Below are positions 12,975 to 64,000 of a stretch of 64,000 nucleotides of DNA, piece after piece. Where the stretch lies: NCBI GenBank assembly GCA_024277095.1, contig JAJRVX010000401.1, positions 26 to 64,025 of the forward strand. Reading direction: 5' to 3'. The position numbers were made by a program, and so were the translations under genes. The stretch's first letter is position 1, and each line of letters opens with the position of its first letter. The stretch is from Chloroflexota bacterium. Its GTDB lineage: Bacteria; Chloroflexota; Anaerolineae; DUEN01. Below the pieces are notes generated by a model that did no database searches, had not been told where the DNA came from, and was given only the letters and a program-made list of their open reading frames with translations.

Positions 12975-13205
12975 ACGCGTCTCAGGGGCTGAGGGGGGCT
13001 TCGCCCCTCCGGAAAGAGACCTTCTTCCGCCTTCGACCTGCCCGGCCCCGGCCCGAACCCCTGCGGAAAGGGCCGAGAAAGGCAGGTGCAGGCCGGAAAA
13101 GTGGGATTTCCGTGGAGGGGAGGTCCCCTCCACACCTCCCCCTGTGGAGCTGGTAGCTGAGGGAGGCCCCTCAGGCACCTTACCGGTAAATTCTCAGGCA
13201 CGCCC
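12975..13205 (+). repeat. MITE-like structured repeat, copy A (left end degenerate)
   Basis: Near-identical to the reverse complement of 29344..29600. It contains the palindromes ggaggggcttcgcccctcc-like and gtggaggggaggtcccctccac. The right end is ...ccggtaaattctcaggcacgccc followed by TTA. Confidence 0.85.
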
Positions 13206-13214
13206 TTAAGAAAA

Positions 13215-29041: not shown

Positions 29042-29089
29042 CGCGCTCCTTCCCCCCATGCATGTCCCCTGTCTCCAATCTCAATCTCC

Positions 29090-29325
29090 AACGAAAAACC
29101 CCCTCGCCACAAGGACGAGAGGGTTCTCCCGCGGTACCACCTTGCTTGACGGAAAGCGTTCCGCTTCCCGTCCACTCTGTCGCGATAACGGGCGAACCCG
29201 GGCCTCCCTACTGGTGTTCAGGAGGCCAGCTCCCCGGCGACCTTCGGCGGCGCTTGTCGGGCGAGGCTCCCAGCCGACGACCTCGCCTCTCTGGCGACCG
29301 CGTACCGCCTACTCCTCCGGTTCCC
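29090..29325 (-). promoter_or_regulatory. T-box leader (tRNA-sensing riboswitch) of valS with a terminator
   Basis: The minus strand reads ...caagcaaGGTGGTACCGCGggagaaccctctcgtccttgtggcgagggggttttt. That is the canonical T-box sequence followed by a terminator hairpin and U-run. Upstream there are an AGAGA element and GAAGGUCG (candidate GUC Val specifier). Confidence 0.8.
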
Positions 29326-29343
29326 AGCCATTGTCTCTGTTAG

Positions 29344-29598
29344 AGCGTGTCTGAAAATTTACCGGTTAAGGTGTCTGAGGGGCTCTCTCAGTTACCAGCT
29401 CCACAGGGGGAGGTGTGGAGGGGACCTCCCCTCCACGGAAAACCCACTTTTCCGGCTTGCACCTGCCTTTCTCTGCCCTTTCCGAAGGACTCGGGCCGGG
29501 GCCGGGCAGGTCGAAGGCGGGAGAAGGGCTTTTTCCGGAGGGGCGAAGCCCCTCCGGGCCTCCCCATAGCAGGGATAACGGCATTTCTCAGACACTCT
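29344..29598 (-). repeat. MITE-like repeat, full-length copy B
   Basis: TIRs are gagcGTGTCTGAAAATT... and ...ATTTCTCAGACACtctc (about 15/17 match). They are flanked by TTA / TTA. The internal palindromes are the same as in copy A. Confidence 0.85.
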
Positions 29599-29662
29599 CT
29601 TAGCGATGAAATTATAGCCCCAGGTCAACGGGGTGTCAAACAGGACAAAGCGCGAATGGCGG

Positions 29663-29755: not shown

Positions 29756-32700
29756 CTACCGTCGCACCATCGGCAGCCACGACCGGTGGCCCACAAACAC
29801 CCGAATCGTATCCTGCGCGGACAGTCCCGTCTCGTCCTGGGCTGTGAGCGTGATGGTGTGCCATCCAAAACTCAGCGTGGTCTCCAACACCTCTCCCTGA
29901 CCCAGGTCGCCATCCCGGTCCGAAGACCAGTGAAGCGATGCGGGGGACAAGTCTTTGAAGTCTTGATCATAAGCATAGCCTCGCAATACCACCGGTAAGC
30001 CCGGATTCAAGATCCAATCATTCAAGGGCGATGTGATGAAGACCGTGGGCGGCTTGCGCGGCACCCGGAAGGGAGCAGGCACCTGGGCATAGGTGGTGTG
30101 GAAACCATCGGTGGCCGCCACGCGCAGCAGGGCATCGTCCCCGCCGGGCAATTCCGTGGCATCGATGGTCAGCGTCGTGTCGGTGATACCAATGGCGATC
30201 GGCTGCCAGGAGTTGCCGCCGTCCGCGCTGTATTGCACGATGAATTCGAGGGGGTCGCCGTCCGGATCTGAGGCCGTCCATACCATATGAATCGTGTCGG
30301 TGATGGTCTCCCCGCCTAGAGGTGAAGTGATGGTGACGGTGGGCGGGTTGGGACTGGCCTCCAGAGTGGCCAACGCCGCGTCCTCATGTTTGAGCACCAA
30401 TCGCTTCGCCTGAGCGTCATAAGGCATGGTCAGCAAGAAGGACGTCGCTGTAATCGGCCCTCGGCTATCCAGGAACACGTGCGGTGCGAAGGTGCGGGTG
30501 TGCAACACCCGACCGCCGGCGTCCAGAAGCTCCAGAGTGTAGGGCCCGTCGGGCAGATCATCCTGGAAATTGGGATTTTGGATAATGTACAGGGGCTCCA
30601 GCTCGGCCGTCGTCGTGGTGGTAGTGGCGATACTTCCCTGCACCAGGAATCGAGGCTCATCGGCTGCCTCCGTCGCCCGGGCAGTGCTCGCGGTGACGTT
30701 AATGATCGCCTCATGCAAGGCCCTGTAAGTGTAATCGGAAGGCCATAGAGGTAAGCCGATCAGATCGCCGTAACTCATGATGTCAGCCGTCTTGGCGGGA
30801 TCGATAACCCGTCTCCTTCGAACGTCGAAGCCATAATAGTCATTGGCCTGAGCGTGACTAAGCTGACAATTCGGGTAAGGCCAGTGGGGATCAGGTCCGC
30901 CCGGACTCCCGGGACGGCCGGGAGGGGGACAAGGTACATGTCGCCGGCCCAGCGCGTGGCCCAGTTCATGGAGGAAGTTGATCCCCATTGTTCGGCTCGA
31001 GCTCTTATGCTCGAACCACAGAACCCGCGAGGATAGATCTTGAGCCATTCCCTCAGTGGTCGTAAGCCAGGAATCGACATATCCCACGTAGTATGCGTTG
31101 CCCGGCCCAAACCAACGCTCCGACCAGGGACGTTGGGCGTTTAGAATCTCGTGTGGGCACTCATCTACATCCTTGCTTTGTAAGTAGTATTGGTGGTAGC
31201 AATAGCTAAGGAGGGTGGTACCTTTGTACAATCTAACGATACCGCGCCAATACATACGCCAATCGGACGTCGCCATCGGGTATAGCCGCAGCCACTCAAA
31301 AGCCCTTCTGGCCCCGGCTTCTGATGGGTCCGTCCGAATACGGAGGCCATATACATAGAATGCCAGATCGCCACCGTCTACAAATTGTACATTTTGTGCT
31401 TTCGTGTTGTTGCAGTTGCTGTCCGGACGGTCGCACCGCCAGTTGACCTCGGCGACCATCATATAGGACCCCTCCACCCATTGGGCCCCCTGGAGGGGTA
31501 GGCGGAAAAGAAGGCTTTGCTTTACATCACGACGCTCCGCGGTTGTGGGACGGCCTTTGCCCGCCAGGACGCGGGCTGTGACGGGGCGCAGGGGTTGCAA
31601 CGTCCCCCGATCGCTGGTCAGCCTTCCGCTCACGTTGGGCACATCGCAGCCCGCGATGTCGTTGGGATAGCGAGCGCGAAGGTACACACGCACATATGTC
31701 TCCTTGCCCGCTATCAAGGGGGCCTGGTTCGCCAGATTTTGTATAACTTGCGTGACCTCAAAGCCTGTTACCTGGATATCCGGCTTGAGCAACGTAAGGG
31801 CTTTGGGAGGCGTCTGGAAGGGGAATCCCGCGATTTCGCCGCTGGCCTGGTTGATGATCCGCTGGGGCCACCGGTCGTTGGCAAGCCTCATGAGCGTGGC
31901 GCAATCCACCCTGGCCCGGAAGCTGATGACTGCGGTCTGGCCATCAGGGATGGTTCCATTCCATACGATGCTGCGCGAATTCTTGTTGTAGCGAACGGTG
32001 CCAAAATTGGCATGCGCGCTTCCGGCCACGTAAGTGGTGTACTGAGGCAAGGGATCCGTCATCCGGGAAGGCGCGCTGGCACCCGTGGGACTGTCCCAGA
32101 AGAGGCTGATCGTATACGTGATCTCCTGACCCGGCGCGATGCTATCGGCGGGGTTTCCGGGGGGTGGCGCGGCCGCCTTAACCGCCTCGAAGGTGGGCGT
32201 GGGTGTAGGTGTGAGTGTAGGGGTGGGGGTGGGGGTTGGAGTAGCCTGAGCAAGGTAGAAAATGTTCTCAGTGTAAGAACCGGGATCCGGAAGACGGTAT
32301 TCGATGGTGTTGCAATCGACAACCGTGCCGCGGTCCGCAACGGCGCCGGAGCAGGTATAGCCAGGCGGGGGATCCACTACGATACGGTAACGATTGTACC
32401 CTCCATCCCACAGGGAAAAGGAAAAACGGCCATCTGAGGTGGTCGTCGTCTGCTGTAACTGTGTCCAGGAAGTATCCCCCTCTTTACGAGCATGCAGCTT
32501 GACGTTCACCCCTTGCATAGGCGTCGCACCCGGGCCCAGGACCTGTCCGCCAAAGCGATAAGTGGGCGTGGGGGTAGGGGTAGATGTGGGGGTAGGGGTG
32601 GGAGTAGCCGGTGCGTCGTAGAAATTGTTGCCCGCATAGCTCCCCGATGGAGGCCGATCATATCCGATGGTGTTCTCGTCGATGACCCGCCCACCCGGGC

Positions 32701-34096
32701 CCGCCTGAGCGCCGATGGAAACGTAGCCGGGCAGATCCCGTTCGTGGAGGATGTAATACTGGTACCCCTGTACCTCCTGATGGAGGATGGTATACCGTCC
32801 CTGCTGATCTGTGCGCACTCTCTGCAACATCTTCCACGCCTCAGACTCCGTCGTCCGCCCCATCAGCTCCACCAACACGTTCCAGAGGGGGCGCTGGCCG
32901 TCCAGCACGCGCCCCTCAAAGCGATACTCACGCACGGCGGCCAACGTCGGCGTAGGCGTCGGGGTGGGTGTCGGCGTGGGCGTGTCGGTGACGATCACCG
33001 CGCCGCCTGTGGGCGTCGGTGTGGGTGTAGGTGTGGATGTCGGTGTTGGTGTTGATGTTGATGTTGGCGTGGACGTAGAGGTTGCCGTAGGCGTAGCAGT
33101 GGGAAGGGATTGGATGTACTGCAAGATGGTTCCGTTCGCGCCTACTGTATAGGCTGTTGTGTCAGTAGCCCAGACACCATAAAGATGGTTGTTTGTCCCA
33201 CTGGTCATGGGAGTCCACTCGGTTCCATCCCAATGGAGAATGGTGCCGAAAGCCCCGGCCGCATAGATGTCGTTGCTCGCCGTACCGTGCATGTCGTACA
33301 GGGCCTCGGAAGTCCCGGAAGGTGTGGAGTCCCACCCACTGCCGGTCCAGTGGTAGATATTTCCGTAGATGTTTCCGATGAAGAAGTCGGTTTCACTGGT
33401 GCCCCATATGGCGCTCAAATCGCTGGAGCTGGGATTGGTCATGGGAAACCACGGAGAAGGCCCCCAGAGCATAAAGCCCCCATCGCCGATGACAAATACC
33501 GATGAAGCCGTCCCCCAGATATCCCATAGGGGCATTGAATCAGGGGAGTCATACGTACCCGCGTCGATCAGTGTACTCCAGGACGAGCCATCCCAGTGGG
33601 CAACAAACGCCTCATTGGGCGTGCCCGCTATGTCGGCTCCCGCTACGTAAATGTCGTTGACGCCGGTCCCCCAAATTCCCCGCTGTATCTTGCCGGAAAA
33701 CGTTCCCAGAGAGGTCCAACCACCGCCGCTGTAATAGAAGGTTTCCCAGTTGGTCATAACGTAGAGACTGTCAGGTCCGGTCCCCCATATGTCCACGATA
33801 TTGTCCGTTGTGGGAGAGGATAAGGATACCCATGCGGTACCATCATAGTGGAGGATGGTACCATTCGCGCCGCCCGCAAAGACGTCATTGGGCCCGAACC
33901 CCCAGACGGCGTTCAGGTCTTGGGTGGTAGGGCTGGTCATGGAAATCCATGTACCCTGGGAAACGCGTGCTGGCTGAGGGGCACCAGGGGCGCTCAAAAT
34001 AGGAGCAGCGAACAGGGACCCCAAGCCCAAACATATCAAAGCGAAGGCGACGAAAAGGAAGATGTGGCGGCTGCCTCGACGGCGTCGCAAGCGCAT
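29756..34096 (-). CDS. Secreted multidomain zinc metalloprotease (HExxH) with beta-propeller-like repeats, PT linkers and Ig-like domains
   Basis: ATG 34096 lies behind AAAGGAGGT. Signal peptide MRLRRRRGSRHIFLFVAFALICLGLGSLFA. At least 5 repeats of the form WG.G..D(V/I)(F/Y).(G)..GTILH(Y/W)DG..W. Several (PT)n linkers, and FLHELGHALGRRH. Confidence 0.8.
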   Translation of the reverse strand: MRLRRRRGSRHIFLFVAFALICLGLGSLFAAPILSAPGAPQPARVSQGTWISMTSPTTQDLNAVWGFGPNDVFAGGANGTILHYDGTAWVSLSSPTTDNIVDIWGTGPDSLYVMTNWETFYYSGGGWTSLGTFSGKIQRGIWGTGVNDIYVAGADIAGTPNEAFVAHWDGSSWSTLIDAGTYDSPDSMPLWDIWGTASSVFVIGDGGFMLWGPSPWFPMTNPSSSDLSAIWGTSETDFFIGNIYGNIYHWTGSGWDSTPSGTSEALYDMHGTASNDIYAAGAFGTILHWDGTEWTPMTSGTNNHLYGVWATDTTAYTVGANGTILQYIQSLPTATPTATSTSTPTSTSTPTPTSTPTPTPTPTGGAVIVTDTPTPTPTPTPTPTLAAVREYRFEGRVLDGQRPLWNVLVELMGRTTESEAWKMLQRVRTDQQGRYTILHQEVQGYQYYILHERDLPGYVSIGAQAGPGGRVIDENTIGYDRPPSGSYAGNNFYDAPATPTPTPTSTPTPTPTYRFGGQVLGPGATPMQGVNVKLHARKEGDTSWTQLQQTTTTSDGRFSFSLWDGGYNRYRIVVDPPPGYTCSGAVADRGTVVDCNTIEYRLPDPGSYTENIFYLAQATPTPTPTPTLTPTPTPTFEAVKAAAPPPGNPADSIAPGQEITYTISLFWDSPTGASAPSRMTDPLPQYTTYVAGSAHANFGTVRYNKNSRSIVWNGTIPDGQTAVISFRARVDCATLMRLANDRWPQRIINQASGEIAGFPFQTPPKALTLLKPDIQVTGFEVTQVIQNLANQAPLIAGKETYVRVYLRARYPNDIAGCDVPNVSGRLTSDRGTLQPLRPVTARVLAGKGRPTTAERRDVKQSLLFRLPLQGAQWVEGSYMMVAEVNWRCDRPDSNCNNTKAQNVQFVDGGDLAFYVYGLRIRTDPSEAGARRAFEWLRLYPMATSDWRMYWRGIVRLYKGTTLLSYCYHQYYLQSKDVDECPHEILNAQRPWSERWFGPGNAYYVGYVDSWLTTTEGMAQDLSSRVLWFEHKSSSRTMGINFLHELGHALGRRHVPCPPPGRPGSPGGPDPHWPYPNCQLSHAQANDYYGFDVRRRRVIDPAKTADIMSYGDLIGLPLWPSDYTYRALHEAIINVTASTARATEAADEPRFLVQGSIATTTTTTAELEPLYIIQNPNFQDDLPDGPYTLELLDAGGRVLHTRTFAPHVFLDSRGPITATSFLLTMPYDAQAKRLVLKHEDAALATLEASPNPPTVTITSPLGGETITDTIHMVWTASDPDGDPLEFIVQYSADGGNSWQPIAIGITDTTLTIDATELPGGDDALLRVAATDGFHTTYAQVPAPFRVPRKPPTVFITSPLNDWILNPGLPVVLRGYAYDQDFKDLSPASLHWSSDRDGDLGQGEVLETTLSFGWHTITLTAQDETGLSAQDTIRVFVGHRSWLPMVRR

Positions 34097-34131
34097 GTTG
34101 ACCTCCTTTCGATATGATTGCGCACAAAGCC

Positions 34132-34344
34132 TCACACCTGATTCGCTGGTCTCCCTTCTTGCCATTCCATCAGAACCTCTTCCACGAATTCCACCAAGTC
34201 CTCCACACTGCTGAACCCCCAGCGTCGGCCCGTATGCGGCTCCTCCAACGCGATCCTCAACAGTGCGGGTTCGTCTTGCCCCTCCCGCTGTTCTGTCCAA
34301 ACATACAAAAGATAGATGCGAGGACGGCTCATTTGAGCGATCAA
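34132..34344 (-). CDS. Small conserved-looking hypothetical protein upstream of the protease
   Basis: 70 aa: ...LLRIALEEPHTGRRWGFSSVEDLVEFVEEVL.... Same strand as the protease and 36 nt before its start. Confidence 0.45.
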   Translation of the reverse strand: MIAQMSRPRIYLLYVWTEQREGQDEPALLRIALEEPHTGRRWGFSSVEDLVEFVEEVLMEWQEGRPANQV

Positions 34345-34485
34345 GGGAATAGGGGTATAATCTCACGTGACGGATATCACTCACTCCATCATATTCCAAG
34401 AGCGTTGAATAAACGTTGAAAGAGACTGGATCCGCTCATTCTGATCCGGACCGTGAATCGGAAACTTCAGCCTTGACACACGGCC

Positions 34486-38025: not shown

Positions 38026-38180
38026 CGTCCTCCCGGCAGCCCGCCCCGCTCTTCCCCACGACACCTCGCAGCCGCCACGATGCCACCATATTGGCTTCCC
38101 CCAAGTCGTCCTTCGGCGCTCTGGTGGTGGCTCGATTGACATCCCCGGGAACGCACGTTATGATGCCCACGCGCCCTCAG

Positions 38181-38352
38181 AGCGTATCTGAGAAATGCCG
38201 TTGCCTCTGATATGGGGAGACCCGGGGGACGGAGCTTTCCGGAAAAAGCCCTTCTCCCGCCTTCGACCTGCCGACCTCGGCCAGGGTCCTTTGAAAAGGG
38301 TCGAGAAAGGCGGGAGGGCAGGCATCTTACCGGTAAATCCTCAGATACGCCC
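38181..38352 (+). repeat. MITE-like repeat, internally deleted copy C
   Basis: The ends match copies A and B: gagcgtatctgagaaatgccgtt... and ...cttaccggtaaatcctcagatacgccc. It is flanked by TCA / TCA. The central palindrome module is missing. Confidence 0.8.
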
Positions 38353-44163: not shown

Positions 44164-44831
44164 AAACGCGATATCGCACGCGCTCGAATGCCAAAGCTTA
44201 AAGCCACAGCAGAGAGACAGAGGAACACGCGAGGACGACTCCGCCGAATTCGCGTGTCAGGACTTACCGGGGAACGATCTGCATGATATGTATAGCACGA
44301 AACAGCCGGGCTGTCAACGATCACTTATATAAAAACCGGAATACCCTCCATTATTGCAGCGGTCATGAGGCCCAAGCCCGCCCAGAGGCGAAGGCCACCA
44401 CCAGAATACGGTGTGATCCCCCTGCTAGGCTATTGAACGTTCCACGCCAATATGTTAACGTCATTAGTTGTAGAGCCCATTCCTGACAGTGTAGCACCGC
44501 ACTTGAACGCAGCGATATGGAAAAGGGCATCCCGGTAGATAACGATCGCTCTCCTGAGGAGACCTGGAGGAACGACACCCTCCAGAGCCCCCGTCTTTCA
44601 ACCTCTGACCAGCCCGGCCCGGATAGAATCATCGCCAGGGCTAGGGGCGGCTGGTCACGAGTGGAAAGCAGGGGACGATGCGACATCGTCCCATCCGGCG
44701 GAGGAACCCTTCGTCGCACCTTCCCGATTCCGACGTAAGCACCCTTCCAGTCCTATCACCATCTTGTCATGAAGCGCAGGGCTATGATCCGTTGCGTTCC
44801 GACATCCACGGACGGGTATTGAGGACGTCAA

Positions 44832-46028
44832 ATGCAGAATCACGTTGTAAAGCACCCCAATTCGCCCTCCCGCCGATCACGAGCGTTGTTCGTTCTGGGC
44901 GTCTTGGTCGTATATGCGCTGGCCCTGGTACCCCTCTATCGGGTTCTGGGATCCCAGGCGATCACCTTTTCCATACTTCCCGTGGCCGCGGCAGGATGGC
45001 TCCTCGGCATGGGGCCCGCGATCCTGATGAGCCTGCTGGCTTTCCTGGTGAACGTGTTATTGCTGGCCCTGATCATTCACAATCCGGATGAAGTGATCGA
45101 GGTGTTTCACCGAGGCGGCCTGCTCGGCTCCATCATGGTGATGTTGGTCGGCACGATCATTGGACAATTTCACGACCTACACGAGCGGCTCAAGAGGGAA
45201 TACAACGAGCGGAAACGGGCAGAGGAACGGTTACGGGAGGCCAACGCACAGCTACAGGCAGCCCTGAAAGCCAGGGAGGAGATGCTCCAAAACGTCTCGC
45301 ACGAGCTGCGCACCCCATTGACGCTGATCAAAGGCTATGCGGAGCTATGGAAGGAAGGGATGCTGGGCCCGCTAACCCCAGCACAGGAGAAGGCCGCGGC
45401 CATCCTGAACAGCCAATGCGATCGGCTCCGTTATATGATCGACCGGCTGATCCTCATACAAACCCTGAGCACGACATCCCTCCGGGAAACGCAAGTGGAT
45501 CTCAACCGGCTGCTCCAGGAGGCGGTACAGGCCTGGCAGGCACATGCGGAGAAGGAGGGAATCCAGCTCTCCCTTGAGCTTCCCTCCCATCTGCCTCCCA
45601 TCACAGGAGATCGCAATCTCCTCTCCCACGTGATCTACAACCTCCTGGATAACGCCATCAAGTTCAGCCCGGATGGAGGGGCCGTGAGCGTCTGCGCCCG
45701 ACTGGAGGACGGAGAGCTTCTGATCACCGTCTCAGACCAGGGGATCGGCATCCCACCGGACAAGCTGGAACAGGTCTTCGAGCGTTTCTACCAGGTGGAC
45801 GGCGGCAGCACGCGACGATTCGGCGGGATGGGCATCGGTCTGGCGTTATGCCGTGAGATCATCCAGCTACACGGAGGCCGCATCTGGGCTGAGAGCGAAG
45901 GAGATGGGCGAGGAAGCGCGTTCCACATCAGGCTACCACTAAGGACACCGCCCCCGGGCACGGCATCGCAATGCGCCGCGTCGGCGCAACAGCCGCCTTC
46001 GGGGCAACCGGGGCCCGTAAGGGGATAG
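44832..46028 (+). CDS. Sensor histidine kinase (membrane, HisKA + HATPase_c)
   Basis: H-box SHELRTPLT, N box LLDNAIKFS and G boxes DQGIGI / GGMGIGLALC. No cognate response regulator is adjacent. Confidence 0.85.
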   Translation: MQNHVVKHPNSPSRRSRALFVLGVLVVYALALVPLYRVLGSQAITFSILPVAAAGWLLGMGPAILMSLLAFLVNVLLLALIIHNPDEVIEVFHRGGLLGSIMVMLVGTIIGQFHDLHERLKREYNERKRAEERLREANAQLQAALKAREEMLQNVSHELRTPLTLIKGYAELWKEGMLGPLTPAQEKAAAILNSQCDRLRYMIDRLILIQTLSTTSLRETQVDLNRLLQEAVQAWQAHAEKEGIQLSLELPSHLPPITGDRNLLSHVIYNLLDNAIKFSPDGGAVSVCARLEDGELLITVSDQGIGIPPDKLEQVFERFYQVDGGSTRRFGGMGIGLALCREIIQLHGGRIWAESEGDGRGSAFHIRLPLRTPPPGTASQCAASAQQPPSGQPGPVRG

Positions 46029-46082
46029 GCAGCCCTACGCGCGCCCCTCTCCGGCATCATGACGTGAGAGCCATCGAAAAGT

Positions 46083-46112
46083 TTGACACGCTCAATCACA
46101 TACCGCTATAAT
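46083..46112 (+). promoter_or_regulatory. Near-consensus sigma70 promoter (TTGACA-18-TATAAT) about 260 nt upstream of mgsA
   Basis: tttgacacgctcaatcacataccgctataatg. Confidence 0.55.
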
Positions 46113-46189
46113 GACCGGTGAGAGGTCAGCCCTCCCCCCGAATTGTAGGGGCCTCCTCGTATACCTCGCCGGCGACAGCCCCCTGGCAC

Positions 46190-46350
46190 CCAGGCAGCGA
46201 TCCTGCGCAGAACTGCGGCCCTTTTCACCCTTCGCCAGCCCCGTAAGGCCGTCTGCCGCCCGCTCATGAGCTGCCCGGCCCCGCTCCAGATCTCTGGAGC
46301 CCCCCCACACCTCCCTCTGCGGGGAGTGCTGCCAAACTCTCAGACACGCT
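46190..46350 (+). repeat. MITE-like repeat, degenerate copy E inside the mgsA leader
   Basis: Shares ctgcccggcccc, ccacacctccctctgcgg, and the terminal ctcagacacgc followed by TTA. Confidence 0.5.
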
Positions 46351-46374
46351 TACCGAAAACAATAAGGAGATGAA

Positions 46375-46842
46375 ATGATTCACAAGAAGATCGCCATGGA
46401 ACATGACAAGAAAATCGCCCTCGTGGCACACGACAACAAGAAACGGGACCTGATCCAGTGGGCCAAATACAACCGAGACCTCCTGGCACACCACGAGGTA
46501 TACGCCACGGGCACTACCGGCGAGATCTTAGAGCATGAGCTCGGCTTCAAAATCACGAAGCTGCAAAGCGGACCCTTGGGCGGAGATCAGCAGATCGGCG
46601 CCAAGATCGTCGACGGCGAGATCAACTTTCTGATCTTCTTCTGGGATCCACTTGAGCCCATGCCCCACGATCCCGACGTCAAGGCGCTCCTGCGGATGGC
46701 GGTGGTGTGGAATATCCCGATCGCCTGCAATCGAGCCTCCGCCGACTTCATGATCTCATCCCCCCTCATGGATGGGGAGTACGATCGTCTGGTGGCCGAC
46801 TACGAGGAGTACCGGGCACGAAACATCACCGTGGATGGATAG
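46375..46842 (+). CDS. mgsA: Methylglyoxal synthase
   Basis: [15 protein letters not shown] ... YATGTTG ... [12 protein letters not shown] ... [18 protein letters not shown]. Confidence 0.9.
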
Positions 46843-46863
46843 ATCGCGCCGTGACAACGGCAA

Positions 46864-46953
46864 CTACCGCCTGTGAAGCGCCCGCATCCCCAGCACTACC
46901 AGTCCACTGCCCACCAGCAGGAGGGTGGCGGGTTCGGGAATGAGGTGAACATT
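46864..46953 (-). pseudogene. Orphan PEP-CTERM tail remnant
   Basis: The minus strand reads (TAG) N V H L I PEPATLLLVGSGLVVLGMRALHRR stop. It is a stand-alone PEP-CTERM anchor with a stop immediately upstream. Confidence 0.4.
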
Positions 46954-47030
46954 CTACATCGTGTCCCTCCTGGAAAGAGGAAAGACACAACCTGTAGTAT
47001 CCTCACCGCACAAGAGCACTACACCTCGTA

Positions 47031-47085
47031 GGTAGGGCGGGTGGGATTCGAACCCACACGGGCGCAAGCCCAGCGGATTTTAAGT
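47031..47085 (-). pseudogene. 3' fragment of tRNA-Leu(UAA), from the anticodon loop to the acceptor end; putative att site
   Basis: The minus strand reads CTTAAAATCCGCTGGGCTTGCGCCCGTGTGGGTTCGAATCCCACCCGCCCTACC. That gives an anticodon loop with UAA, a long variable arm, a T-arm and a 3' acceptor. No complementary 5' acceptor strand or D-arm lies upstream. Confidence 0.7.
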
Positions 47086-47769
47086 TCCGGACATTGCGTG
47101 TGACGGATCACACACAACATGTAGTGCCCGAGATACCCCCCACACCCTAGATGCTGTGTCTCCCAAGCTGAAAAATCCTGCGGTTGCTTTCATGTCAAAG
47201 ATAGCACGCAAACTGATGGATGTCAACCATGTGATAATCGTCAAGCGAATTCTACGTATTTACTCTCTCCAACAGATCAGCAGAACGCGAACGACTCAAT
47301 GGACAGCTTGCGCTCCATTCAGCGGGCACAAACCCAGTGGATTTGTATGCACAAGGGCAATTCGCGGCATTGATCGCGCCAACAATGCCCGTGGATGTAT
47401 CGGTGCTTTCCCGGCCTGAGTATAGTACGCATCTGATCGTGGAGCAAACCTCTGCTTAGACCTCATGACTGGTATTCAGCAATGCACAATGTTTTCGCAA
47501 ACAACCGTGGCTTGGCGAAACGGCAACTCCTGTTGACATGACGTGGGAAGGCGTGATATATTGGGGGCGAGGTGTCTTCCTGAGACGATGGCGACAGATG
47601 CAGCAACGGCGGCAACAAGCAGCCACGGCGCGAAAGCAGAACGAGGCTCGATTCAACCCTCGTGGTATACGTGAATCATACTTCGGCTTGGTTCCTAATC
47701 CTCGTGTAGCAGAGCATCAGTGGGTGTAACCATACTGCAGGCGAGGCGCCAATGACTGGAGGCAGAGGG

Positions 47770-48606
47770 ATGAAGCAGGTGGTGAAGGTTGCTGGAGTGC
47801 AAATGGAACCTAAGCTCCTAGATAAGGAGCACAATCTCTCAAAATGCCTTGAAACAATGTATCTGACTGCCGGGAAGGGGGCGCGCCTCGTCGTCTTTCC
47901 CGAGTGCGCCTTGTCTGGCTATGTTTTTTCCAGCCTTGAAGAGGCACTTCCCGTTGCAGAGCCTATCCCTGGGCCGAGCACCGAACGGATCATCGCTGCG
48001 TGCCGCGAGTTGAACATCTTCGCTGTAGTAGGTCTCTTGGAAAGGGATGGAGACAAATGCTACAATGCGGCAGTGCTTCTTGGGCCTGAAGGTCTGGTTG
48101 GGAAGCATCGCAAAGCCCACCTGCCTGACTTGGGGATTGATCGGTTCCTTCATCCTGGTGACTTACCATTTACCGTCTATGATACCGGGATAGGTAAGAT
48201 AGGGATAGCGATTTGCTACGAAGCGTGTTTCCCCGAGCACACTCGCATACTCGCGCTGCAAGGGGCTGAAATTGTTGTACTGCCTACCAATTGGCCTGAT
48301 TGGCCTGTGGTTCGTGTGATTCGCGATCTGTTAGTCCCTGCAAGGGCTGCGGAGAATTTCGTGTACTTTATCGCTGCCGATCGTATCGGCGAGGAAAGGG
48401 ATATCACATTCCTGGGAGGCAGTAGAATTGTTGGGATAGGCGGTGCGATTTTGGCAGAGGTGAAGGAGCATGAGGAAGGCGTTATATTCGCTGACCTCGA
48501 CCTGACAGAAACGCAAGATAAAATGGGCCTCTTGAGTAAGCGACGTCCCGATCTTTATGGTCTCATTGTCCAAGAAATGAGCCATAGCCCATCAAGCTCT
48601 GCTTAA
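47770..48606 (+). CDS. Carbon-nitrogen hydrolase (nitrilase superfamily)
   Basis: Catalytic Glu/Lys/Cys contexts VVFPECALSGY, HRKAHLP and IAICYEACFPE. Confidence 0.8.
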   Translation: MKQVVKVAGVQMEPKLLDKEHNLSKCLETMYLTAGKGARLVVFPECALSGYVFSSLEEALPVAEPIPGPSTERIIAACRELNIFAVVGLLERDGDKCYNAAVLLGPEGLVGKHRKAHLPDLGIDRFLHPGDLPFTVYDTGIGKIGIAICYEACFPEHTRILALQGAEIVVLPTNWPDWPVVRVIRDLLVPARAAENFVYFIAADRIGEERDITFLGGSRIVGIGGAILAEVKEHEEGVIFADLDLTETQDKMGLLSKRRPDLYGLIVQEMSHSPSSSA

Positions 48607-48799
48607 CCTCCACCTGCAAGAGCCTGGAAACAAGGAGACAATTCTTCTCTCCCGAGACCTCGAACGTCTGTAACGGATGATTTGGGAGAAGAAGAAACCC
48701 AGCCGTGTGATCCAGGTATCGGTGTATGAGTTTGCCTGAGAGCCCCTCTCTCATGCAGCCTTCACGGCCTTCAAAGGAGGCACAGAAGAATAGCCCCAA

Positions 48800-49591
48800 A
48801 TGCAACGCTTAAAATTCAGTCTCCTACACAATGCCTTGGACTCGCTAACCCAAGGAATCGAGTTTGCCCTTCAGCATGATAACAAACCAAACAGGCTTAA
48901 ATTAGCTATACTCTTACTCGCCCAGGCCGTAGAGCTTGTGCTGAAGGAGAGATTAAGTCGTGAGCATTGGTCGTTGATATTTGCTCAAGTAGACCAGGCT
49001 TGCCAGAAAGATGCGCGCACGGTTTCTATTCAAGGTGCCAAGAAGCGACTTGTAACTATTGCTGCATTGCGTTTCGACTGTGAGGATGAGAAAGCGATTA
49101 AGAACATAGCGAGAATTCGCAACCGAATTCAGCATTATGAAATTGAGATATCTTACGAGCAAGCGCTGAGTTATATTCACGCAGCCATTGGTTTTCTGAT
49201 CAAGTTTACAAAGGACGAACTTGGGCAGGACATTAAGGACTTACTTACAGAACAACAACATCAACAGTTGATTGAGATCGAAAGCATTCATGCTGCTCTT
49301 AAGCAAGTAGCAGATAGACGGATCGAAGAATTGCGGAAAGAGCATTGGTCTGCAAAGCCCAAGGAATTAATTGACTGGGACTTTGAGGTTATAGAGTGTC
49401 CTGCATGTGGACAGACGTACTATGTGTTTTCTGTTAGTGCGAATCTCTCTCTATGCCAATTCTGTGGTTTCGAGGGTAGGTTTGTGGAAGCAGAATGTGC
49501 ACGTTGTGGCAAGCTATTCTCTGTGGAAGCGGGCTATGAAAGCAAGTTTCCCTTATGTGAGAGTTGCGATATCTATGTCCAGGGTCAGTGA
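48800..49591 (+). CDS. HEPN-like (Rx4H) protein with a C-terminal double zinc ribbon
   Basis: Helical N-terminal domain with IARIRNRIQHYE (R-x4-H at 49118..49135). The C-terminus has CPACG..CQFCG and CARCG..CESC. Confidence 0.5.
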   Translation: MQRLKFSLLHNALDSLTQGIEFALQHDNKPNRLKLAILLLAQAVELVLKERLSREHWSLIFAQVDQACQKDARTVSIQGAKKRLVTIAALRFDCEDEKAIKNIARIRNRIQHYEIEISYEQALSYIHAAIGFLIKFTKDELGQDIKDLLTEQQHQQLIEIESIHAALKQVADRRIEELRKEHWSAKPKELIDWDFEVIECPACGQTYYVFSVSANLSLCQFCGFEGRFVEAECARCGKLFSVEAGYESKFPLCESCDIYVQGQ

Positions 49592-49638
49592 TTCACTAAT
49601 CGCGGGCCGCGAATAGCAGGTGTTATGTAGGTATCCTG

Positions 49639-50259
49639 GTGGGTTGGTTCCAGATGAAACGCATCATCCGGGCGTTCATTCCTGTGATAGGCACCTTGAT
49701 CATAGTCATCTTTTCCTGTGTTACATGCCAAAGCTTTTATGTCTATAACCCACATAGTGAGGAATATACCACCTTGGGAAGATACATCCTCTTTAAGGCA
49801 GCTAGGACGATCTTGATCCAACGCGACTCGTCGCTTAAAGGGTTAGAAGAAGAAGTTGAGCGTAGCGTGGATTACATTGAGCAGACCATGCAGATCAGTA
49901 ATGAGTATGCTAAAGCAACAGAAATCATAGCAAATCAATTGGAAGCGATCGAACGAGATCCGTCACTGTTTGAGGAAACAACTTGGTTTAAGAAGCTCGC
50001 ACTTGGGATGACGATGATAGAGAGAAACAATAGGAAACTTCGCAATATGACCCCTCCTGCGCAACTTAAAGCAGTGCATCGAGAGTGGCTTACCGCGGCA
50101 CAGCACTTTGACAATGCTCTCGATGTACTTGGTGACTGGCTGCGAGGCGGTGGATTGGGTGAACTTGATGAGTATGTGGAGGAGATTCACCGGGCCAGTG
50201 AAGCGATCGAACGCGCGGAAGAGGAACTGCAATCGCTGCTAGACTTACCTGACGAGTAG
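49639..50259 (+). CDS. Membrane-anchored helical hypothetical protein
   Basis: N-terminal TM helix (IIRAFIPVIGTLIIVIFSCVTC) followed by an acidic helical region. Confidence 0.4.
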   Translation: MGWFQMKRIIRAFIPVIGTLIIVIFSCVTCQSFYVYNPHSEEYTTLGRYILFKAARTILIQRDSSLKGLEEEVERSVDYIEQTMQISNEYAKATEIIANQLEAIERDPSLFEETTWFKKLALGMTMIERNNRKLRNMTPPAQLKAVHREWLTAAQHFDNALDVLGDWLRGGGLGELDEYVEEIHRASEAIERAEEELQSLLDLPDE

Positions 50260-50308
50260 GTGTAGTAAATATTCTTGTACTCTCTAGACCCGAAGATAGA
50301 GGTTTACA

Positions 50309-50554
50309 ATGACGATCCTGGTAAGGTTCTTCGGTCTACTTGAACTCGCCGCCCTAGCGGCCTTCGTGTATGGCTTCTTCACTGGAGTGAGCGCTCTAGC
50401 TATCGCGGGTGGGCTTGTGTGCCTATCTGTTGATCTAATGGGCATTTTGACAGGGAAGCTCAAACCCCTATTCCCGATCATTGTCGTCCTGATTCTGTCC
50501 GGGCTTATTAAGCCTTGGTACTTATGGAGTCTTCTGGTTCTCCGCCGCGAATAG
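50309..50554 (+). CDS. Small three-TM membrane protein
   Basis: 81 aa, almost entirely hydrophobic helices. Confidence 0.4.
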   Translation: MTILVRFFGLLELAALAAFVYGFFTGVSALAIAGGLVCLSVDLMGILTGKLKPLFPIIVVLILSGLIKPWYLWSLLVLRRE

Positions 50555-59658: not shown

Positions 59659-59740
59659 TGGAGCCGGCAGGACTCGAACCCGCACCTCTCGGGCGCACTT
59701 CGGCGTTACCCGAGCGTCCTCTCCGTTAGACGACGGCCCC
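59659..59740 (-). tRNA. Atypical tRNA-like gene with a 17-nt anticodon loop
   Basis: GGGGCCG TC GTCT AACGGAGA GGAC G CTCGG GTAACGCCGAAGTGCGC CCGAG AGGT GCGGG TTCGAGT CCTGC CGGCTCC A. The acceptor, D and T arms are canonical. The anticodon stem is a perfect 5 bp, but the loop is 17 nt instead of 7. Confidence 0.5.
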
Positions 59741-59782
59741 AAAAGGGAAGGGTGAGGGCATTATACCCTCACCCCCTGTTTA

Positions 59783-60172
59783 TCAGAAAGGTACGTCCTC
59801 GTCCTCTGCGGCTGGCACGGGCTCGGCAGCGCCGTTCCCGTTACTGCTGTTGCCGCCCAGGAAGCGCACATTGGCAGCTCGTAGTTCCAGCGTGGCGCGT
59901 GCATTCCCGTTCTGGTCAGTCCAGGTGGAAACGTCCACCTCGCCCTCAATGAGCACGGCGCGGCCTTTGTGCAAATACTGGCTGCACACGTCGGCCAGCT
60001 TGCCCCAGGCACTCACACGGAACCAGGTCGTCTTCTCCTGCGGGTTGCCGTCCCGGTCAGTCCACCGCCGGTTTGTGGCAACGCTGAACGTGCATACCTG
60101 CGCACCGCTTGGCGTGTACCGCACCTCGGGGTCGTTTCCCAAACGGCCGGCAATGATGACTTTCTGAAACAT
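59783..60172 (-). CDS. ssb: Single-stranded DNA-binding protein
   Basis: OB-fold block MFQKVIIAGRLGNDPEVRYTPSGAQVCTFSVATN...TWFRVSAWGKLA and an acidic tip EDEDVPF. Confidence 0.9.
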   Translation of the reverse strand: MFQKVIIAGRLGNDPEVRYTPSGAQVCTFSVATNRRWTDRDGNPQEKTTWFRVSAWGKLADVCSQYLHKGRAVLIEGEVDVSTWTDQNGNARATLELRAANVRFLGGNSSNGNGAAEPVPAAEDEDVPF

Positions 60173-60305
60173 GGTTACCTCCTGGGATGTTGGTTTGATC
60201 GGGGCGAATTACCCCACTCCTATCGTCGTCATGGTGTGGGAAACGCCGTGGTTCCCACATCGATTGGCTGCCAGAGAGGATCTCGCCTCCCGCAGCGCAT
60301 AGATG

Positions 60306-60746
60306 CTACCGCAGGAGGCGGGAGGGGTACTGTGCTTCCCCCAGTATGGCCTGGAAGGCCGGGTCTGGCTCCACCTCCCAGGCGGCGTTCACCTGCTCCT
60401 CACCCTTCGCCAGCCTGCCTGCAACGCCCATCGCGTAACGCAGGGCGGTCACGCGGGTGCCAAGCTTCACGCCGGCCTGGGTCAGCTTGGTGAACACGTC
60501 TATCGGCTCCAGGCCATTGGCGATCGCCTCTGCCACCGCTGCCCGTTGCTCGGGCGATAGTGGCCTGCGCAACGTACGATTGCCAGTCGTCGGCTCAAAG
60601 CCGTTCGCAATCCAACCGCCGATGAGCCGAATAAGCTTCTCGTCCATCGGCTTGTAGACCTGGCTGCCGACAACAACCTCGCTGCCGTTGATCTTGACAG
60701 CGATCTCGCGGCGTCCCCGCTTGAAGGTAATCACACGCTCGGCCAT
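60306..60746 (-). CDS. Hypothetical protein
   Basis: 146 aa with GGAGGT before the ATG. No motif recognised. Confidence 0.4.
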   Translation of the reverse strand: MAERVITFKRGRREIAVKINGSEVVVGSQVYKPMDEKLIRLIGGWIANGFEPTTGNRTLRRPLSPEQRAAVAEAIANGLEPIDVFTKLTQAGVKLGTRVTALRYAMGVAGRLAKGEEQVNAAWEVEPDPAFQAILGEAQYPSRLLR

Positions 60747-61462
60747 CTCATACCTCCTGGAAGTGATGTTGACTTTGGGGCCAACTACCCCACCCCTAAC
60801 CGTTCCAGGAGGCCCGCCTGCTCTGGCCGTCCGCCCCCATCCCCGGACGGGTGTCCTCCTCTCCCTCCCGCTCCAAGAACACCCCCCTGTTCATTTCTGA
60901 GAGCATGTGGGATGGTTTAGCACCCCCTTGCACACGGAGGGGTATGCTCGGTTTTCCTCACGCAGAGTACTAAAGCCGAGCACTTGCACATGGAGAGGAA
61001 GCCCGAATCTGCTTCTGACGCGGAGTCCTGATGCGGGTGATACTGTCGACGACGTGCGGAAGTGCAGTGGGGAAGTTAGATAGGTTGATGAGCGGCGGGG
61101 AGGATCTCGTGGTATTCCACAGCGAGGTTAACATTCTCGGTGGCCACACGATCAGGTGGATCTACGCGGAGTTACGGGAGAAGGCTTTGATCCTGAGCGT
61201 GGATGAAGCTAGCGTGGTACGAGAGGTACGTGGCGGGGACGCCGCTTGAGAAAGTGGTAATCGCGCGGGAGATCACCGAGCTCATCTACGAGCGGCTGCA
61301 CATGATTGACGGGGCTCGCATGAGAGAGATACGGGTGGCTATGCGGTAGCTACGGCCTATGTTCAGCGCCATCAACGTCCAGGTCGGTGACTCTATCCCT
61401 TTCACCTACGATCTGACGGTCAATGCCGGAGGCTGACCCGTAACACGATCCGCCGCCGTGGT

Positions 61463-61501
61463 GAGAGAGAGGGGCGTCGATGAGGCGCCCTTTCTCTTTT
61501 T
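61463..61501 (+). terminator. Intrinsic terminator-like hairpin plus T-run
   Basis: gagagagaggggcg tcgatgag gcgccctttctc ttttt. Confidence 0.45.
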
Positions 61502-61695
61502 GGCTCACTGCATCCTCTACGCCCGTTGAGAGAAGTTACATAGACGTTGAGAGGATCCCGAGGGCCTATGGACATGGATAATTTCTTTCATATATAATCT
61601 CAAGCGAGAGGAAAGTCATACCCTTTTGTTTCAAGGTAAAGTGATTCCACAAAGGCCAGCGAAAGGAAAAGCAAAGGCGAAAGGGAGGGGCAGCC

Positions 61696-63873
61696 ATGAA
61701 GAAGCTGCTTAAGTGGGGATGTGTTGGTACATCGGCCGTCGTAGGCCTTGTGGTCGTATTAGCGATCGCTGTTGTGTTGTTTAGCAATAAAGAGCAAGCT
61801 TTCTCTCCGTCAATCACATCGGAAGTCGTTGCGTCTCAGCCAATAATAACATCAGAACAACAGACTATAACGCCTGCTATCGAGGCGGTAAGCACTCATG
61901 AACCCACACTATCGCCTACAGAGCCACCAACCTCACTCCCATCAGCGCCCGCAGCTATACGGACGCCAACTCTCGTATCACAACTACATACACCTGAAAA
62001 GACAGAAGTGCCCCCTATTGAAACCATCCCCGTCTCAACGAGCGATCTAATCGTGTATGTGCCGAATATTCTGGGGAAATCTGTTCAAGAAATCGAAGAT
62101 CAATACGGCCAGGGTGCTATGATCACCCAAATGCCAGCCGGCGCTGTAGATTCAATCCCCGAAGGAGGGGAGATGCGGACATACACCGTCGGGAAGTACA
62201 GCTTCAGCGTAGCATACAACCTTAACGGCGTTGCAAAGGGCTTCCAGGTTATGGATGGACTTTCAGAAGACGACTACCTTCTGAATCAGTGGTCATTGCT
62301 TCTGAACCGCTTCGGTTTCTCCGTGACCGAATCCCCTGATATGCAAGCGCCTATGGCTGTACGCTGGGATAACTTTCACGGGTACAAAATAGAGATTGCC
62401 ACCTCCACCCCAGATGGGCCGGTATGGACGGTGAAGATATCGAAATTGAGAGATGAAGGGGAAAAGCCGATTGCACAACAGAAATCAGAGCCTGGTGCTC
62501 GACCATACGTCCAGGTCAAGGAGGGAGTTGTCAATATACGTCAAGGGCCTGACACATCTTTCCCTATTGTAGGGAAAATGCGGGAAGGTGATCATCACGC
62601 CATTATCGGCAAGACGCTTGACCAACGATGGTGGCAGATATGCTGTGTTAATGAGAATCCTGCGTGGGTGGCCGCGTGGGTTGTTGAAGCTACCGGAGAT
62701 GTAGGGCTTGTCCCTGTGGTACAGGAAATTACATCTACTGCCACGTCTACATTAACACTAACGCCATCCATTATTAAGCCTAAACCAACACCAACTTATC
62801 TGGCTCCTCCTGTTCATGAGATACTTGCCACTTGGCGCGATGAAAGTTTGACTGACGTACAGCGGGACGCCTACCTGAATAGTTTAAAAGGGAAACGTGC
62901 TGTAAATTGGTCGGGGCGTGTGACGAATGTAGACAAGACTCTCTTCTTCTTTTATACCGTTGAAGTGGATGTTACAGGAGATAGTGATTACGATGTTATC
63001 TTTCCAGTCAGTAAAGAAGAGGCTTTGCGAATTAACAAAGGACAACATATCGTCTTCTCTGGCACAATCTCGAGTTTTTCAAGCTTTCTTGGCCTCTCAC
63101 ATACGATTCACCTGAGCAACGTAACTTTTAGGCTCGTAGAAGCCCTCGATCTTACTCAACCATTACCAGGCCCTTACGTTCAGATCAAAGAGAGCCCGGT
63201 CAACATTCGCCAAGGGCCAGGCACATCGTTTCCCATTATAGGGAAGATGGTTGAGGGAAGCCGCTACGAGATTATCGGCAAAACACTTGATGAGAAATGG
63301 TGGCAGATATGCTGCGTCAATGACAAACCTGCCTGGGTCGCTGCGTGGGTAGTAGAGGCGGTAGGCAACACAGAGCAAATTGCCGTCGTTCAAGAGATCC
63401 CCACACCACCGCCGACACCAACACCTAAGCCACAGATGAATCTGGCTGAAGCCTTTCCCGGTATCGGAGAGACCGTCACGGCCAATGGTTGGGAATTCAA
63501 GATCTACGATGTAAAGAAGCGGAAAGCGGTCTATTTCTACGACGAGGCCTATATCGCTCAGGGACACTTCTTACTGGTCTTTATCGAGGCGGTTAATCGG
63601 AAGCCAGGGACTGCCTCCTTTGGCGATTTGGATCCATATGTTGCCGACCTCACAGGCAAGGAGTACGAGTATTCGTCCAAGGGGAGCTGGTATGCTCAAT
63701 GGCAATATGAGGGACTAAGCAGTTATTACGACGACGTGAACCCCGGAAACCTTATCCGGATAGTCCATGCATACGATCTCCCTGACACTGTAGGAGACGT
63801 CACATTTGGGGTAAACACAGGTCAAAAGATCTACTTAGGAAACTTCTCCGCTATGCCTTCTGAGGATAGCTGA
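61696..63873 (+). CDS. Membrane-anchored extracellular protein with two SH3b domains and a C-terminal DUF4352-like domain
   Basis: An N-terminal TM helix and a duplicated block VNIRQGP(D/G)TSFPI(V/I)GKM.EG....IIGKTLD..WWQICCVN..PAWVAAWVVEA. Confidence 0.65.
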   Translation: MKKLLKWGCVGTSAVVGLVVVLAIAVVLFSNKEQAFSPSITSEVVASQPIITSEQQTITPAIEAVSTHEPTLSPTEPPTSLPSAPAAIRTPTLVSQLHTPEKTEVPPIETIPVSTSDLIVYVPNILGKSVQEIEDQYGQGAMITQMPAGAVDSIPEGGEMRTYTVGKYSFSVAYNLNGVAKGFQVMDGLSEDDYLLNQWSLLLNRFGFSVTESPDMQAPMAVRWDNFHGYKIEIATSTPDGPVWTVKISKLRDEGEKPIAQQKSEPGARPYVQVKEGVVNIRQGPDTSFPIVGKMREGDHHAIIGKTLDQRWWQICCVNENPAWVAAWVVEATGDVGLVPVVQEITSTATSTLTLTPSIIKPKPTPTYLAPPVHEILATWRDESLTDVQRDAYLNSLKGKRAVNWSGRVTNVDKTLFFFYTVEVDVTGDSDYDVIFPVSKEEALRINKGQHIVFSGTISSFSSFLGLSHTIHLSNVTFRLVEALDLTQPLPGPYVQIKESPVNIRQGPGTSFPIIGKMVEGSRYEIIGKTLDEKWWQICCVNDKPAWVAAWVVEAVGNTEQIAVVQEIPTPPPTPTPKPQMNLAEAFPGIGETVTANGWEFKIYDVKKRKAVYFYDEAYIAQGHFLLVFIEAVNRKPGTASFGDLDPYVADLTGKEYEYSSKGSWYAQWQYEGLSSYYDDVNPGNLIRIVHAYDLPDTVGDVTFGVNTGQKIYLGNFSAMPSEDS

Positions 63874-63913
63874 AAGTCGATCGAGTACAAAGCCAGGTTC
63901 AAGATGATCTTAA

Positions 63914-64000
63914 TGGAGAGACATGGCAGATGAGGTACACCAGGAATTGGGATGCACGCTAGAGATTGTGCGACGCCCCAAGGGGCAACGCGGGTTTGTG
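63914..64000 (+). pseudogene. C-terminal fragment of an IS5/IS4-superfamily DDE transposase (truncated upstream, runs off the window)
   Basis: The frame opens after TAA 63911 and reads WRDMADEVHQELGCTLEIVRRPKGQRGFV. This resembles the LGW.LE(I/V)V.R....GF.VLPRRWVVERTF region of IS5-like transposases. No DDE domain lies upstream. Confidence 0.4.

Follow-up and report, generated by a model that had tools for sequence, protein, structure and literature searches.

We analyzed a window of 64,000 nt from a Chloroflexota bacterium (contig JAJRVX010000401.1 of assembly GCA_024277095.1), whose right-hand part is occupied by an inserted element adjoining a fragment of a tRNA-Leu(UAA) gene. The visible part of this element, referred to below as the island, covers positions 47086-64000 (at least 16.9 kb) and runs off the ends of both the window and the contig, the latter being 64,777 bp long and ending within 777 bp of the window end. 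The tRNA fragment lies at 47030-47085 on the minus strand, and host DNA, including an ABC transporter operon, extends to its left. In a preliminary description, this region had been interpreted as a tRNA-bounded integrated element; relatives with empty sites, a break in composition and the orientation of the fragment all support that interpretation.

The fragment (ACTTAAAATCCGCTGGGCTTGCGCCCGTGTGGGTTCGAATCCCACCCGCCCTACCT, minus strand) is the displaced 3' part of tRNA-Leu(UAA) and represents the core of the attachment (att) site at the distal junction of the island. It is identical at 56 of 56 positions to the intact genes of four related loci (L001, L002, L014 and L015). The fragment begins with A31, the last base of the 5' strand of the anticodon stem, and continues through the CUUAAAA loop, the 3' strand of the stem and the long variable arm into the T arm, the 3' acceptor strand and the discriminator A, with CC and then T at its end. 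It lacks the 5' acceptor strand and the D arm, and neither ARAGORN nor Rfam at its gathering score calls a tRNA at this place; a permissive scan gives a sub-threshold tRNA-Sec-like match of 24.4 bits with a mismatched acceptor stem. The preliminary description was therefore right about both the preserved part, from the anticodon loop to the 3' acceptor strand, and the absent arms, and the block proved to be one base longer than noted. With up to three mismatches allowed, a 54-nt core occurs as a single copy in the window, and none of 100 shuffles gave a match. In a four-way alignment, the window agrees with its relatives from A31 through the tRNA 3' end and into the flank, and is unrelated to them 5' of A31. 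Thus the insertion point lies between tRNA positions 30 and 31.

The relatives used for this comparison are a 78.6-kb JGI/NCBI contig (L014), a locus of assembly GCA_054014895.1 (L015), and the Caldilineae metagenome-assembled genome (MAG) J4, which contributes L001 and L002. The tRNA core is a rare sequence: a search with it gave one match in 185,579 species genomes and one in JGI metagenomes, both corresponding to J4, and no match in IMG/VR. The L014 and L015 loci were reached via the gene upstream of tRNA-Cys, namely through the protein P0174 and then its cluster mate P0293. In J4, the core lies within an intact tRNA-Leu(UAA) gene preceded by tRNA-Cys, and the downstream DNA is about 91% identical to window positions 44324-39492, which carry the ABC transporter operon. 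The L014 and L015 loci are about 95% identical to the window over 38.4-47.085 kb. Each of them holds on one contig, in this order, the genes for a QTMAN-type glycosyltransferase and a cold-shock-domain protein, tRNA-Cys, the intact tRNA-Leu(UAA), an 86-nt flank, a 148-aa PEP-CTERM gene, the genes for methylglyoxal synthase and a histidine kinase, and the ABC operon. The search for empty-site alleles that had been proposed with the preliminary description was carried out on these loci: all four (L001, L002, L014 and L015) have the intact tRNA-Leu followed by the same flank with zero island DNA, and the ABC operon follows on the same contig, without the insert, in L014, L015 and J4.

The fragment is in gene orientation at one border of the island, with the native downstream flank on its 3' side, that is, to the left. 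The genes that precede the tRNA in the relatives (tRNA-Cys and those for the cold-shock-domain protein and the QTMAN-type glycosyltransferase) are missing from the window. These observations bear out the earlier placement of the element to the right of the fragment. The QTMAN orthologue P0174 (378 aa, 85% identical to the J4 protein) is encoded on a separate 3,863-bp NCBI contig. This contig is probably from the source assembly and would hold the other end of the island along with tRNA-Cys and the intact tRNA-Leu.

The tRNA-Leu gene might instead have been broken by a non-site-specific insertion or rearrangement without duplication of the 3' part, which would leave its 5' 30 nt at the other border and the gene inactive. 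The visible junction would look identical in that case, so that the window alone cannot distinguish the two. Nevertheless, we consider such a disruption very unlikely on general grounds. The tRNA-Leu(UAA) gene, normally required for reading UUA codons, was found once in each relative locus that could be read (a count that refers to the loci searched, not to whole genomes), and no transposase or insertion sequence (IS) ends were found at the border. Moreover, the break falls in the anticodon stem-loop, which a large class of tyrosine integrases prefers for crossover (PMC4383910).

The native flank downstream of the tRNA occupies 46944-47029 (minus strand) and is host DNA on the B' side of the att site. 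Combined with the 56-nt core, this flank shows 96-98% identity to L014 11912-12053 and L015 7822-7963, where it lies behind the intact tRNA. It is followed at 46860-46943 (minus strand) by a 27-codon remnant of the host PEP-CTERM gene (translation ...M*NVHLIPEPATLLLVGSGLVVLGMRALHRR*), which belongs to the host flank and not to the island. The remnant arose by a 538-bp deletion relative to L014 and L015: positions 12054-12591 of L014 are missing in the window, and the intact 148-aa gene of L014 is located at 12225-12671. J4 likewise keeps only a remnant of this host gene, the result of an independent reduction. The histidine kinase and methylglyoxal synthase genes (about 2.5-2.7 kb; window 44325-46859 versus L001 4338-4552) are present in the window, in L014, in L015 and in the metagenome run X1, but not in J4. 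Since L014 and L015 have them, these genes are native and have undergone a lineage-specific loss in J4 beside the tRNA hotspot. A second tRNA fragment near 44.3 kb was considered as an explanation for the DNA missing from J4, and none was found. We also noted a motif, AGACACAAC.TGTAG, that occurs on both sides of the att core, in direct orientation at 46983-46997 and 47110-47125 and inverted at 47147-47161, as well as in the downstream flanks of tRNA-Leu in the relatives. As candidate integrase arm sites around the core, the pattern ACACAAC[CA]TGTAGT was rejected, its score being not above that of shuffled controls.

The empty site is also present in run X1, at a depth of about 42. There, flank and tRNA 3' end are joined by a 45-nt unitig, and another of 205 nt extends into the 5' half of the tRNA. 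Unitig sequence is exact over 47020-47061, including the window-like flank, at a depth of 41.5, and over 47034-47085 at a depth of 43.2, after which the 5' half of the tRNA follows directly as its reverse complement. In the X1 community, the dominant allele is thus the empty site. Pieces of the island (about 99% identical to the window) have depths of 2.5-8, and the host flank, counted at an identity of at least 97%, has a depth of about 6.4. These depths are consistent with a minor strain having one integrated copy. Given the low depth of the island strain, it is unsurprising that X1 yielded no unitig over 47085/47086. An alternative flank of the tRNA in X1 ('...GGGAGACACAACATCTCACAA') was examined as the possible other end of the island and discarded: its 1,307-nt unitig has a depth of 31, like an abundant second strain, as compared with about 5 for the island, and the tRNA-Leu of a unitig at depth 6.4 is a different one, altered 5' of the crossover.

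The X1 depths bear on the possibility of an assembly chimera, in which a host contig ending in attB would have been joined to a free phage or plasmid via the 56-nt core (attP). The length of the core is close to a common assembler k-mer size, the contig ends soon after, and the missing X1 unitig over the junction points the same way. However, the island (about 5) and the window-type host flank (6.4) are equally low in X1, in contrast to about 42 for the empty-site strain. Even a chimeric contig would require the element to hold the exact 56-nt core of tRNA-Leu, marking it as one that integrates at this site. On balance, we regard a chimera as very unlikely.

The composition of the window changes at the same point. 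The GC content is 0.642 over 1-44324 versus 0.540 over 47086-64000, and the GC content at third codon positions (GC3) is 0.73-0.88 for the flank genes versus 0.44-0.63 for most island genes, dropping at the junction from 0.78 in the methylglyoxal synthase gene to 0.53 in the first island gene. Tetranucleotide distance to the host profile reaches z = 6-10 at 47-54 kb and 6.6-8 at 61-64 kb. The A+T-rich stretches pointed out previously at 48.8-50.6, 58.45-58.70 and 61.5-63.9 kb have GC contents of 0.466, 0.418 and 0.491, respectively. The composition profile, another check suggested at that time, shows a discontinuity at 47.1 kb in GC, GC3 and tetranucleotide usage alike.

The gene content of the island includes a minus-strand module in which the most informative gene (55244-57424, minus strand) encodes a 726-aa protein with a catalytic GDFDGD motif. 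By sequence, this protein matches the Pfam RdRP family PF05183 slightly below the cut-off (E 4e-5, 22.9 bits versus 23.8) and matches phrog_34895; most of its homologues have a precomputed PF05183 match. The catalytic DxDGD signature of barrel DPBB-A is present, residues D400, D402, G403 and D404 are invariant in 19 homologues, and the GDFDGD loop aligns with GGDLDGD of RDR2. Comparison with PDB by sequence alone, using either the single protein or a profile, gave nothing significant, and a tblastn search against 50,697 GenBank phage genomes gave no match; the assignment was decided by comparison of folds alone. The AlphaFold model (pLDDT 85.5, pTM 0.77) was matched by Foldseek to maize RDR2 (7w82, E 6e-16, TM 0.53) and Arabidopsis RDR2 (E 2e-12), to gp62 of phage P74-26 (8f5m) and the gp64-type 'phage P32 gp64' (8f72), both with E 1e-10, to the virion RNA polymerase (RNAP) gp96 of P23-45 (8h2m, E 2e-7), and then to bacterial beta' subunits at about 1e-3. 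Matches in BFVD included a Podoviridae 'RdRP', the uncharacterized P23-45 protein A7XX94 and RNAPs of crAss-like phages. Judged by modelled fold and motif, the 726-aa protein is a two-barrel (double-psi beta-barrel) single-subunit RNAP, and we annotate it as a predicted polymerase.

Single-subunit two-barrel RNAPs have been described for phage P23-45 (PMC10770324), and YonO of the Bacillus subtilis SPbeta prophage is another (PMC5467207); SPbeta shows that a temperate phage can carry an enzyme of this kind in its integrated form. Like the non-virion RNAP (nvRNAP) gp64 of Thermus phage P23-45, gp62 of P74-26 (PMC10770324), gp66 of phi14:2, a crAss-like phage, and YonO, the island protein would be a single chain in the range of about 600-800 aa with a GDFDGD metal-binding loop, encoded in a phage early or replication region. 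The fold of these phage enzymes is shared with the eukaryotic RNA-dependent RNA polymerases (RdRPs) of RNA interference (RNAi), such as RDR2 and QDE-1. The island protein differs in having only 12-14% sequence identity to any solved structure and in belonging to a family known only from metagenomes. A set of 1.84 billion proteins contains 760 representative clusters of this family at E 1e-3 or better.

Homologues of the RNAP are found on 50-75-kb contigs that look phage-like and bear a portal gene, genes for a single-stranded DNA-binding protein (SSB) and RNase H and many small open reading frames (ORFs), and also on IMG/VR contigs of 67-75 kb. The island has its own SSB gene at 59783-60172 (minus strand; Pfam SSB E 9e-37, phrog_44 E 2e-46). 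In five lineages, an SSB gene lies 0.1-4.3 kb from the RNAP homologue; it directly adjoins the homologue in L007 (4753-7481) and L013 (9169-12020), with gaps of about 100-200 nt, and is 0.75-4.3 kb away in the other lineages (L004-L006, L008 and L011-L012). The island SSB is 51% identical to the SSB encoded directly upstream of the RNAP homologue in the IMG/VR contig L007. Among these loci, L013 does not look like a phage, as it encodes CHAT proteins, a group II intron reverse transcriptase, and an SMC-like ATPase with a DUF1156 methylase. The island thus contains genes with their closest relatives on phage genomes, as indicated by the contigs of the RNAP homologues, the phrog_44 match of the SSB and the adjacency in L007. 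Its phage affinity follows from the fold match of the RNAP to Thermus-phage RNAPs, the occurrence of homologues on phage-like contigs and the conserved SSB-RNAP linkage. A closer relative is a contig of an Anaerolineae MAG (GCA_021159845.1, JAGHDS010000196.1), whose synteny with the window covers 53.7-58.0 kb, with nucleotide identity of about 77%. It shares the RNAP (84% aa identity), the adjoining PEP-CTERM protein and the 109-, 96- and 126-aa ORFs (62-90% aa identity), but is only 3.8 kb long and lacks the 118-aa ORF located at 54527-54883 in the window.

Two further genes of the island deserve attention. A tRNA-like gene at 59659-59740 (minus strand) is reported by ARAGORN as 'tRNA-???' and scores 46 bits against the Rfam tRNA model with a 17-nt insert. 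Its acceptor, D and T arms are normal, and the abnormal anticodon arm consists of a 6-7-bp stem with a 13-17-nt loop (GUAACGCCGAAGUGCGC), in which no usable anticodon is evident. The sequence TATAAT is found about 20 nt upstream, and a terminator scan places a strong intrinsic terminator behind the gene at 59622-59652; a promoter scan listed no site at this gene. The gene was not found in those related loci that could be read. In addition, a gene at 57495-58382 (plus strand) encodes a 295-aa PEP-CTERM protein (Pfam PEP-CTERM) with two repeats of a domain, 41% identical (E 3e-17) to the 148-aa L014 protein, which is the product of the host gene beside attB. On this similarity, the island protein is identified as a two-repeat paralogue of the host PEP-CTERM protein. 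The link between the paralogue and the deletion of the host gene could be a coincidence, or could reflect surface or receptor biology.

Taken together, the evidence makes it probable that positions 47030-47085 mark the distal junction of an integrative element that derives from a phage and uses a tRNA att site centred on the anticodon. According to the mechanism that we propose, the element would have entered the only tRNA-Leu(UAA) gene of a Caldilineae bacterium through site-specific recombination at the anticodon stem-loop, a reaction that the anatomy of the junction would ascribe to a tyrosine integrase. The element would have brought its own 3' part of the tRNA, making the gene complete again at the opposite end of the island, outside the contig, with the integrase gene adjoining it, and the original chromosomal 3' part would have been displaced to 47030-47085. 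The tyrosine integrase and the regenerated tRNA, like the total size of the element and its present inducibility, are features that we infer. The visible 17 kb comprise a minus-strand phage early or replication-type module (SSB, tRNA-like RNA, RNAP, ORFans and tRNA-Met) interspersed with low-GC accessory genes.

This arrangement resembles the tDNA islands and prophages of Islander class 'A' (Williams 2002; Hudson et al. 2015, PMC4383910) in its displaced 3' fragment, gene orientation, block of identity reaching from the anticodon stem-loop past the 3' end, foreign composition and empty sites. This is the commonest type of tDNA island: among the 3919 islands of the Islander collection, a 3' fragment is left in 3760, and the attP is anticodon-centred in 2083 (PMC4383910). 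The difference is that Islander requires a regenerated tRNA and an integrase, while only the distal end is visible here, and that the host is an uncultivated member of Caldilineae. The integration mechanism itself is textbook and nothing conceptually new is involved. What the locus provides is an attachment site mapped exactly, to the boundary of positions 30 and 31 of tRNA-Leu(UAA), in Caldilineae, an uncultivated group of Chloroflexota, and a concrete bacterial host for a metagenome-only family of two-barrel RNAPs with kin in P23-45 gp64, YonO and the RNAi RdRPs. The RNAP, the tRNA-like RNA and the PEP-CTERM paralogue are modest extras.

Several results weigh against this interpretation. No intact tRNA-Leu, second repeat or integrase was found within the window, and public runs yielded neither a read nor a unitig across 47085/47086. 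Pfam and PHROGs detected no genes for capsid, portal, terminase, tail or lysis in the visible 17 kb, as had already been noted for virion genes from the sequence alone. Finally, the composition is not uniform: the RNAP, SSB, 146-aa and 126-aa genes have host-like GC3 values of 0.75-0.80, and the island is thus a mosaic in which a core adapted to the host is combined with accessory genes low in GC. Because of this mosaic composition, the island may be composite or decayed.

The same insertion might therefore now persist as a prophage remnant, or as the outcome of tandem or mosaic acquisitions at the tRNA-Leu hotspot, neither excising nor forming virions. Besides the virion, lysis and integrase genes not found in the 17 kb, this possibility draws on the alternation of blocks with host-like and low GC3, on the gene-poor gaps at 47.1-47.7, 58.4-59.6 and 60.7-61.7 kb, and on the depth of the island in X1, which is about that of the host strain and so gives no sign of induction. 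It is compatible with the data and differs from the proposed phage-derived integrative element only in present-day activity. We nevertheless consider it a tentative alternative, of lesser probability, as the att fragment is still 100% intact, the long ORFs are uninterrupted, including that of the 726-aa RNAP with its confident model, and no second tRNA fragment marks a tandem array. In addition, the related contigs, both phage-like and from IMG/VR, have lengths of 50-75 kb, and in the phage-like contig L005 about 10 kb or more separate the portal and other late genes from the RNAP gene; for this reason, the absence of late genes from the visible 17 kb says little.

The phage-derived integrative element could also be read more ambitiously, as a first glimpse of a temperate phage lineage of uncultivated Caldilineae/Anaerolineae in which the SSB and the RdRP-like protein form a module for RNA synthesis on single-stranded DNA templates, accompanied by a tRNA-shaped RNA and a PEP-CTERM copy. 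QDE-1 acts with RPA, the eukaryotic SSB. By analogy, the SSB and RNAP of the island may serve priming or synthesis of a double-stranded RNA type, unlike a promoter-driven transcriptase. The element may further express a tRNA-shaped RNA lacking a usable anticodon loop, and may carry a two-repeat copy of the surface PEP-CTERM protein of its host, whose own gene is deleted. We regard this extended scenario as speculative and rather unlikely in its entirety.

The remaining island genes can be summarized as follows. The first gene, at 47752-48606 (plus strand), encodes a C-N hydrolase of the nitrilase superfamily (Pfam CN_hydrolase E 3e-55; GC3 0.53), which we consider cargo; its NCBIfam nitrilase-like matches are under the equivalog cut-offs. 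It is followed at 48800-49591 (plus strand; GC3 0.44) by a gene whose 263-aa product is DUF3644-like and carries a double zinc ribbon at the C-terminus. Based on PADLOC matches (PDC-S64 E 1.1e-32, HEC-08 E 1.6e-15, DUF3644 E 2.5e-13) and weak PHROG and Pfam matches, this protein resembles the products of candidate anti-phage defence genes. The gene is placed at the low-GC end of the island; defence genes are often found at prophage ends. The four low-GC ORFs of 206, 81, 93 and 460 aa at 49639-52463 (plus strand), known from their translations, have zero matches in Pfam, PHROG, PADLOC and NCBIfam. Among them, the 206-aa product has a hydrophobic N-terminus, and the 460-aa product combines such an N-terminus with a Pro/Thr-rich linker. 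An element-borne tRNA-Met(CAU) is encoded at 52551-52624 (minus strand; ARAGORN, and 59.7 bits against the Rfam tRNA model). The preliminary description had credited the island with its own tRNA(s), an SSB and a polymerase-like gene, and each now has a counterpart in the tRNA-Met and tRNA-like genes, the SSB and the two-barrel single-subunit RNAP. Downstream of the RNAP gene, a run of small ORFans of 110, 207, 109, 96, 118 and 126 aa (52632-55233, minus strand) has neither Pfam nor PHROG matches. Two more ORFans are located on the minus strand, one of up to 161 aa at 58707-59192 that has no family matches and one of 146 aa at 60306-60746 with a host-like GC3 of 0.80.

The last gene of the visible island (61696-63873, plus strand) is low-GC cargo encoding a 725-aa protein with a hydrophobic N-terminus, two SH3_3 domains (Pfam E 9e-15) and a DUF4352-like C-terminus (E 0.0026, below the cut-off). 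Its PHROG matches are to an amidase, over the SH3 part, and to phrog_806, and the gene contains an internal repeat (62503-62690 and 63172-63359). No ORF or gap ORF of 47-64 kb matched an integrase or recombinase, a transposase or an IS in Pfam. An 'IS remnant' listed in the preliminary description is accordingly unsupported: the gap ORFs gave no Pfam match of any kind, and the only repeat family found lies in the host part of the window.

This repeat family comprises non-coding copies of about 140-260 nt at 12995-13206, 29342-29603 and 38176-38314, with another at L014 4133-4395. The copies have 80-92% identity, occur in both orientations and may represent an element resembling miniature inverted-repeat transposable elements (MITEs). 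One copy lies directly upstream of a T-box leader at 29108-29334 (minus strand, 116.5 bits), which precedes the gene for a 912-aa valyl-tRNA synthetase at 26321-29059 (minus strand), an ordinary arrangement that suits a Chloroflexota host. Finally, a 1547-aa ORF at 29756-34399 (minus strand) has a GC content of 0.57-0.60, a tetranucleotide z of 3.2 and, as its sole match, a weak one to CarboxypepD_reg; it probably encodes a large surface protein.

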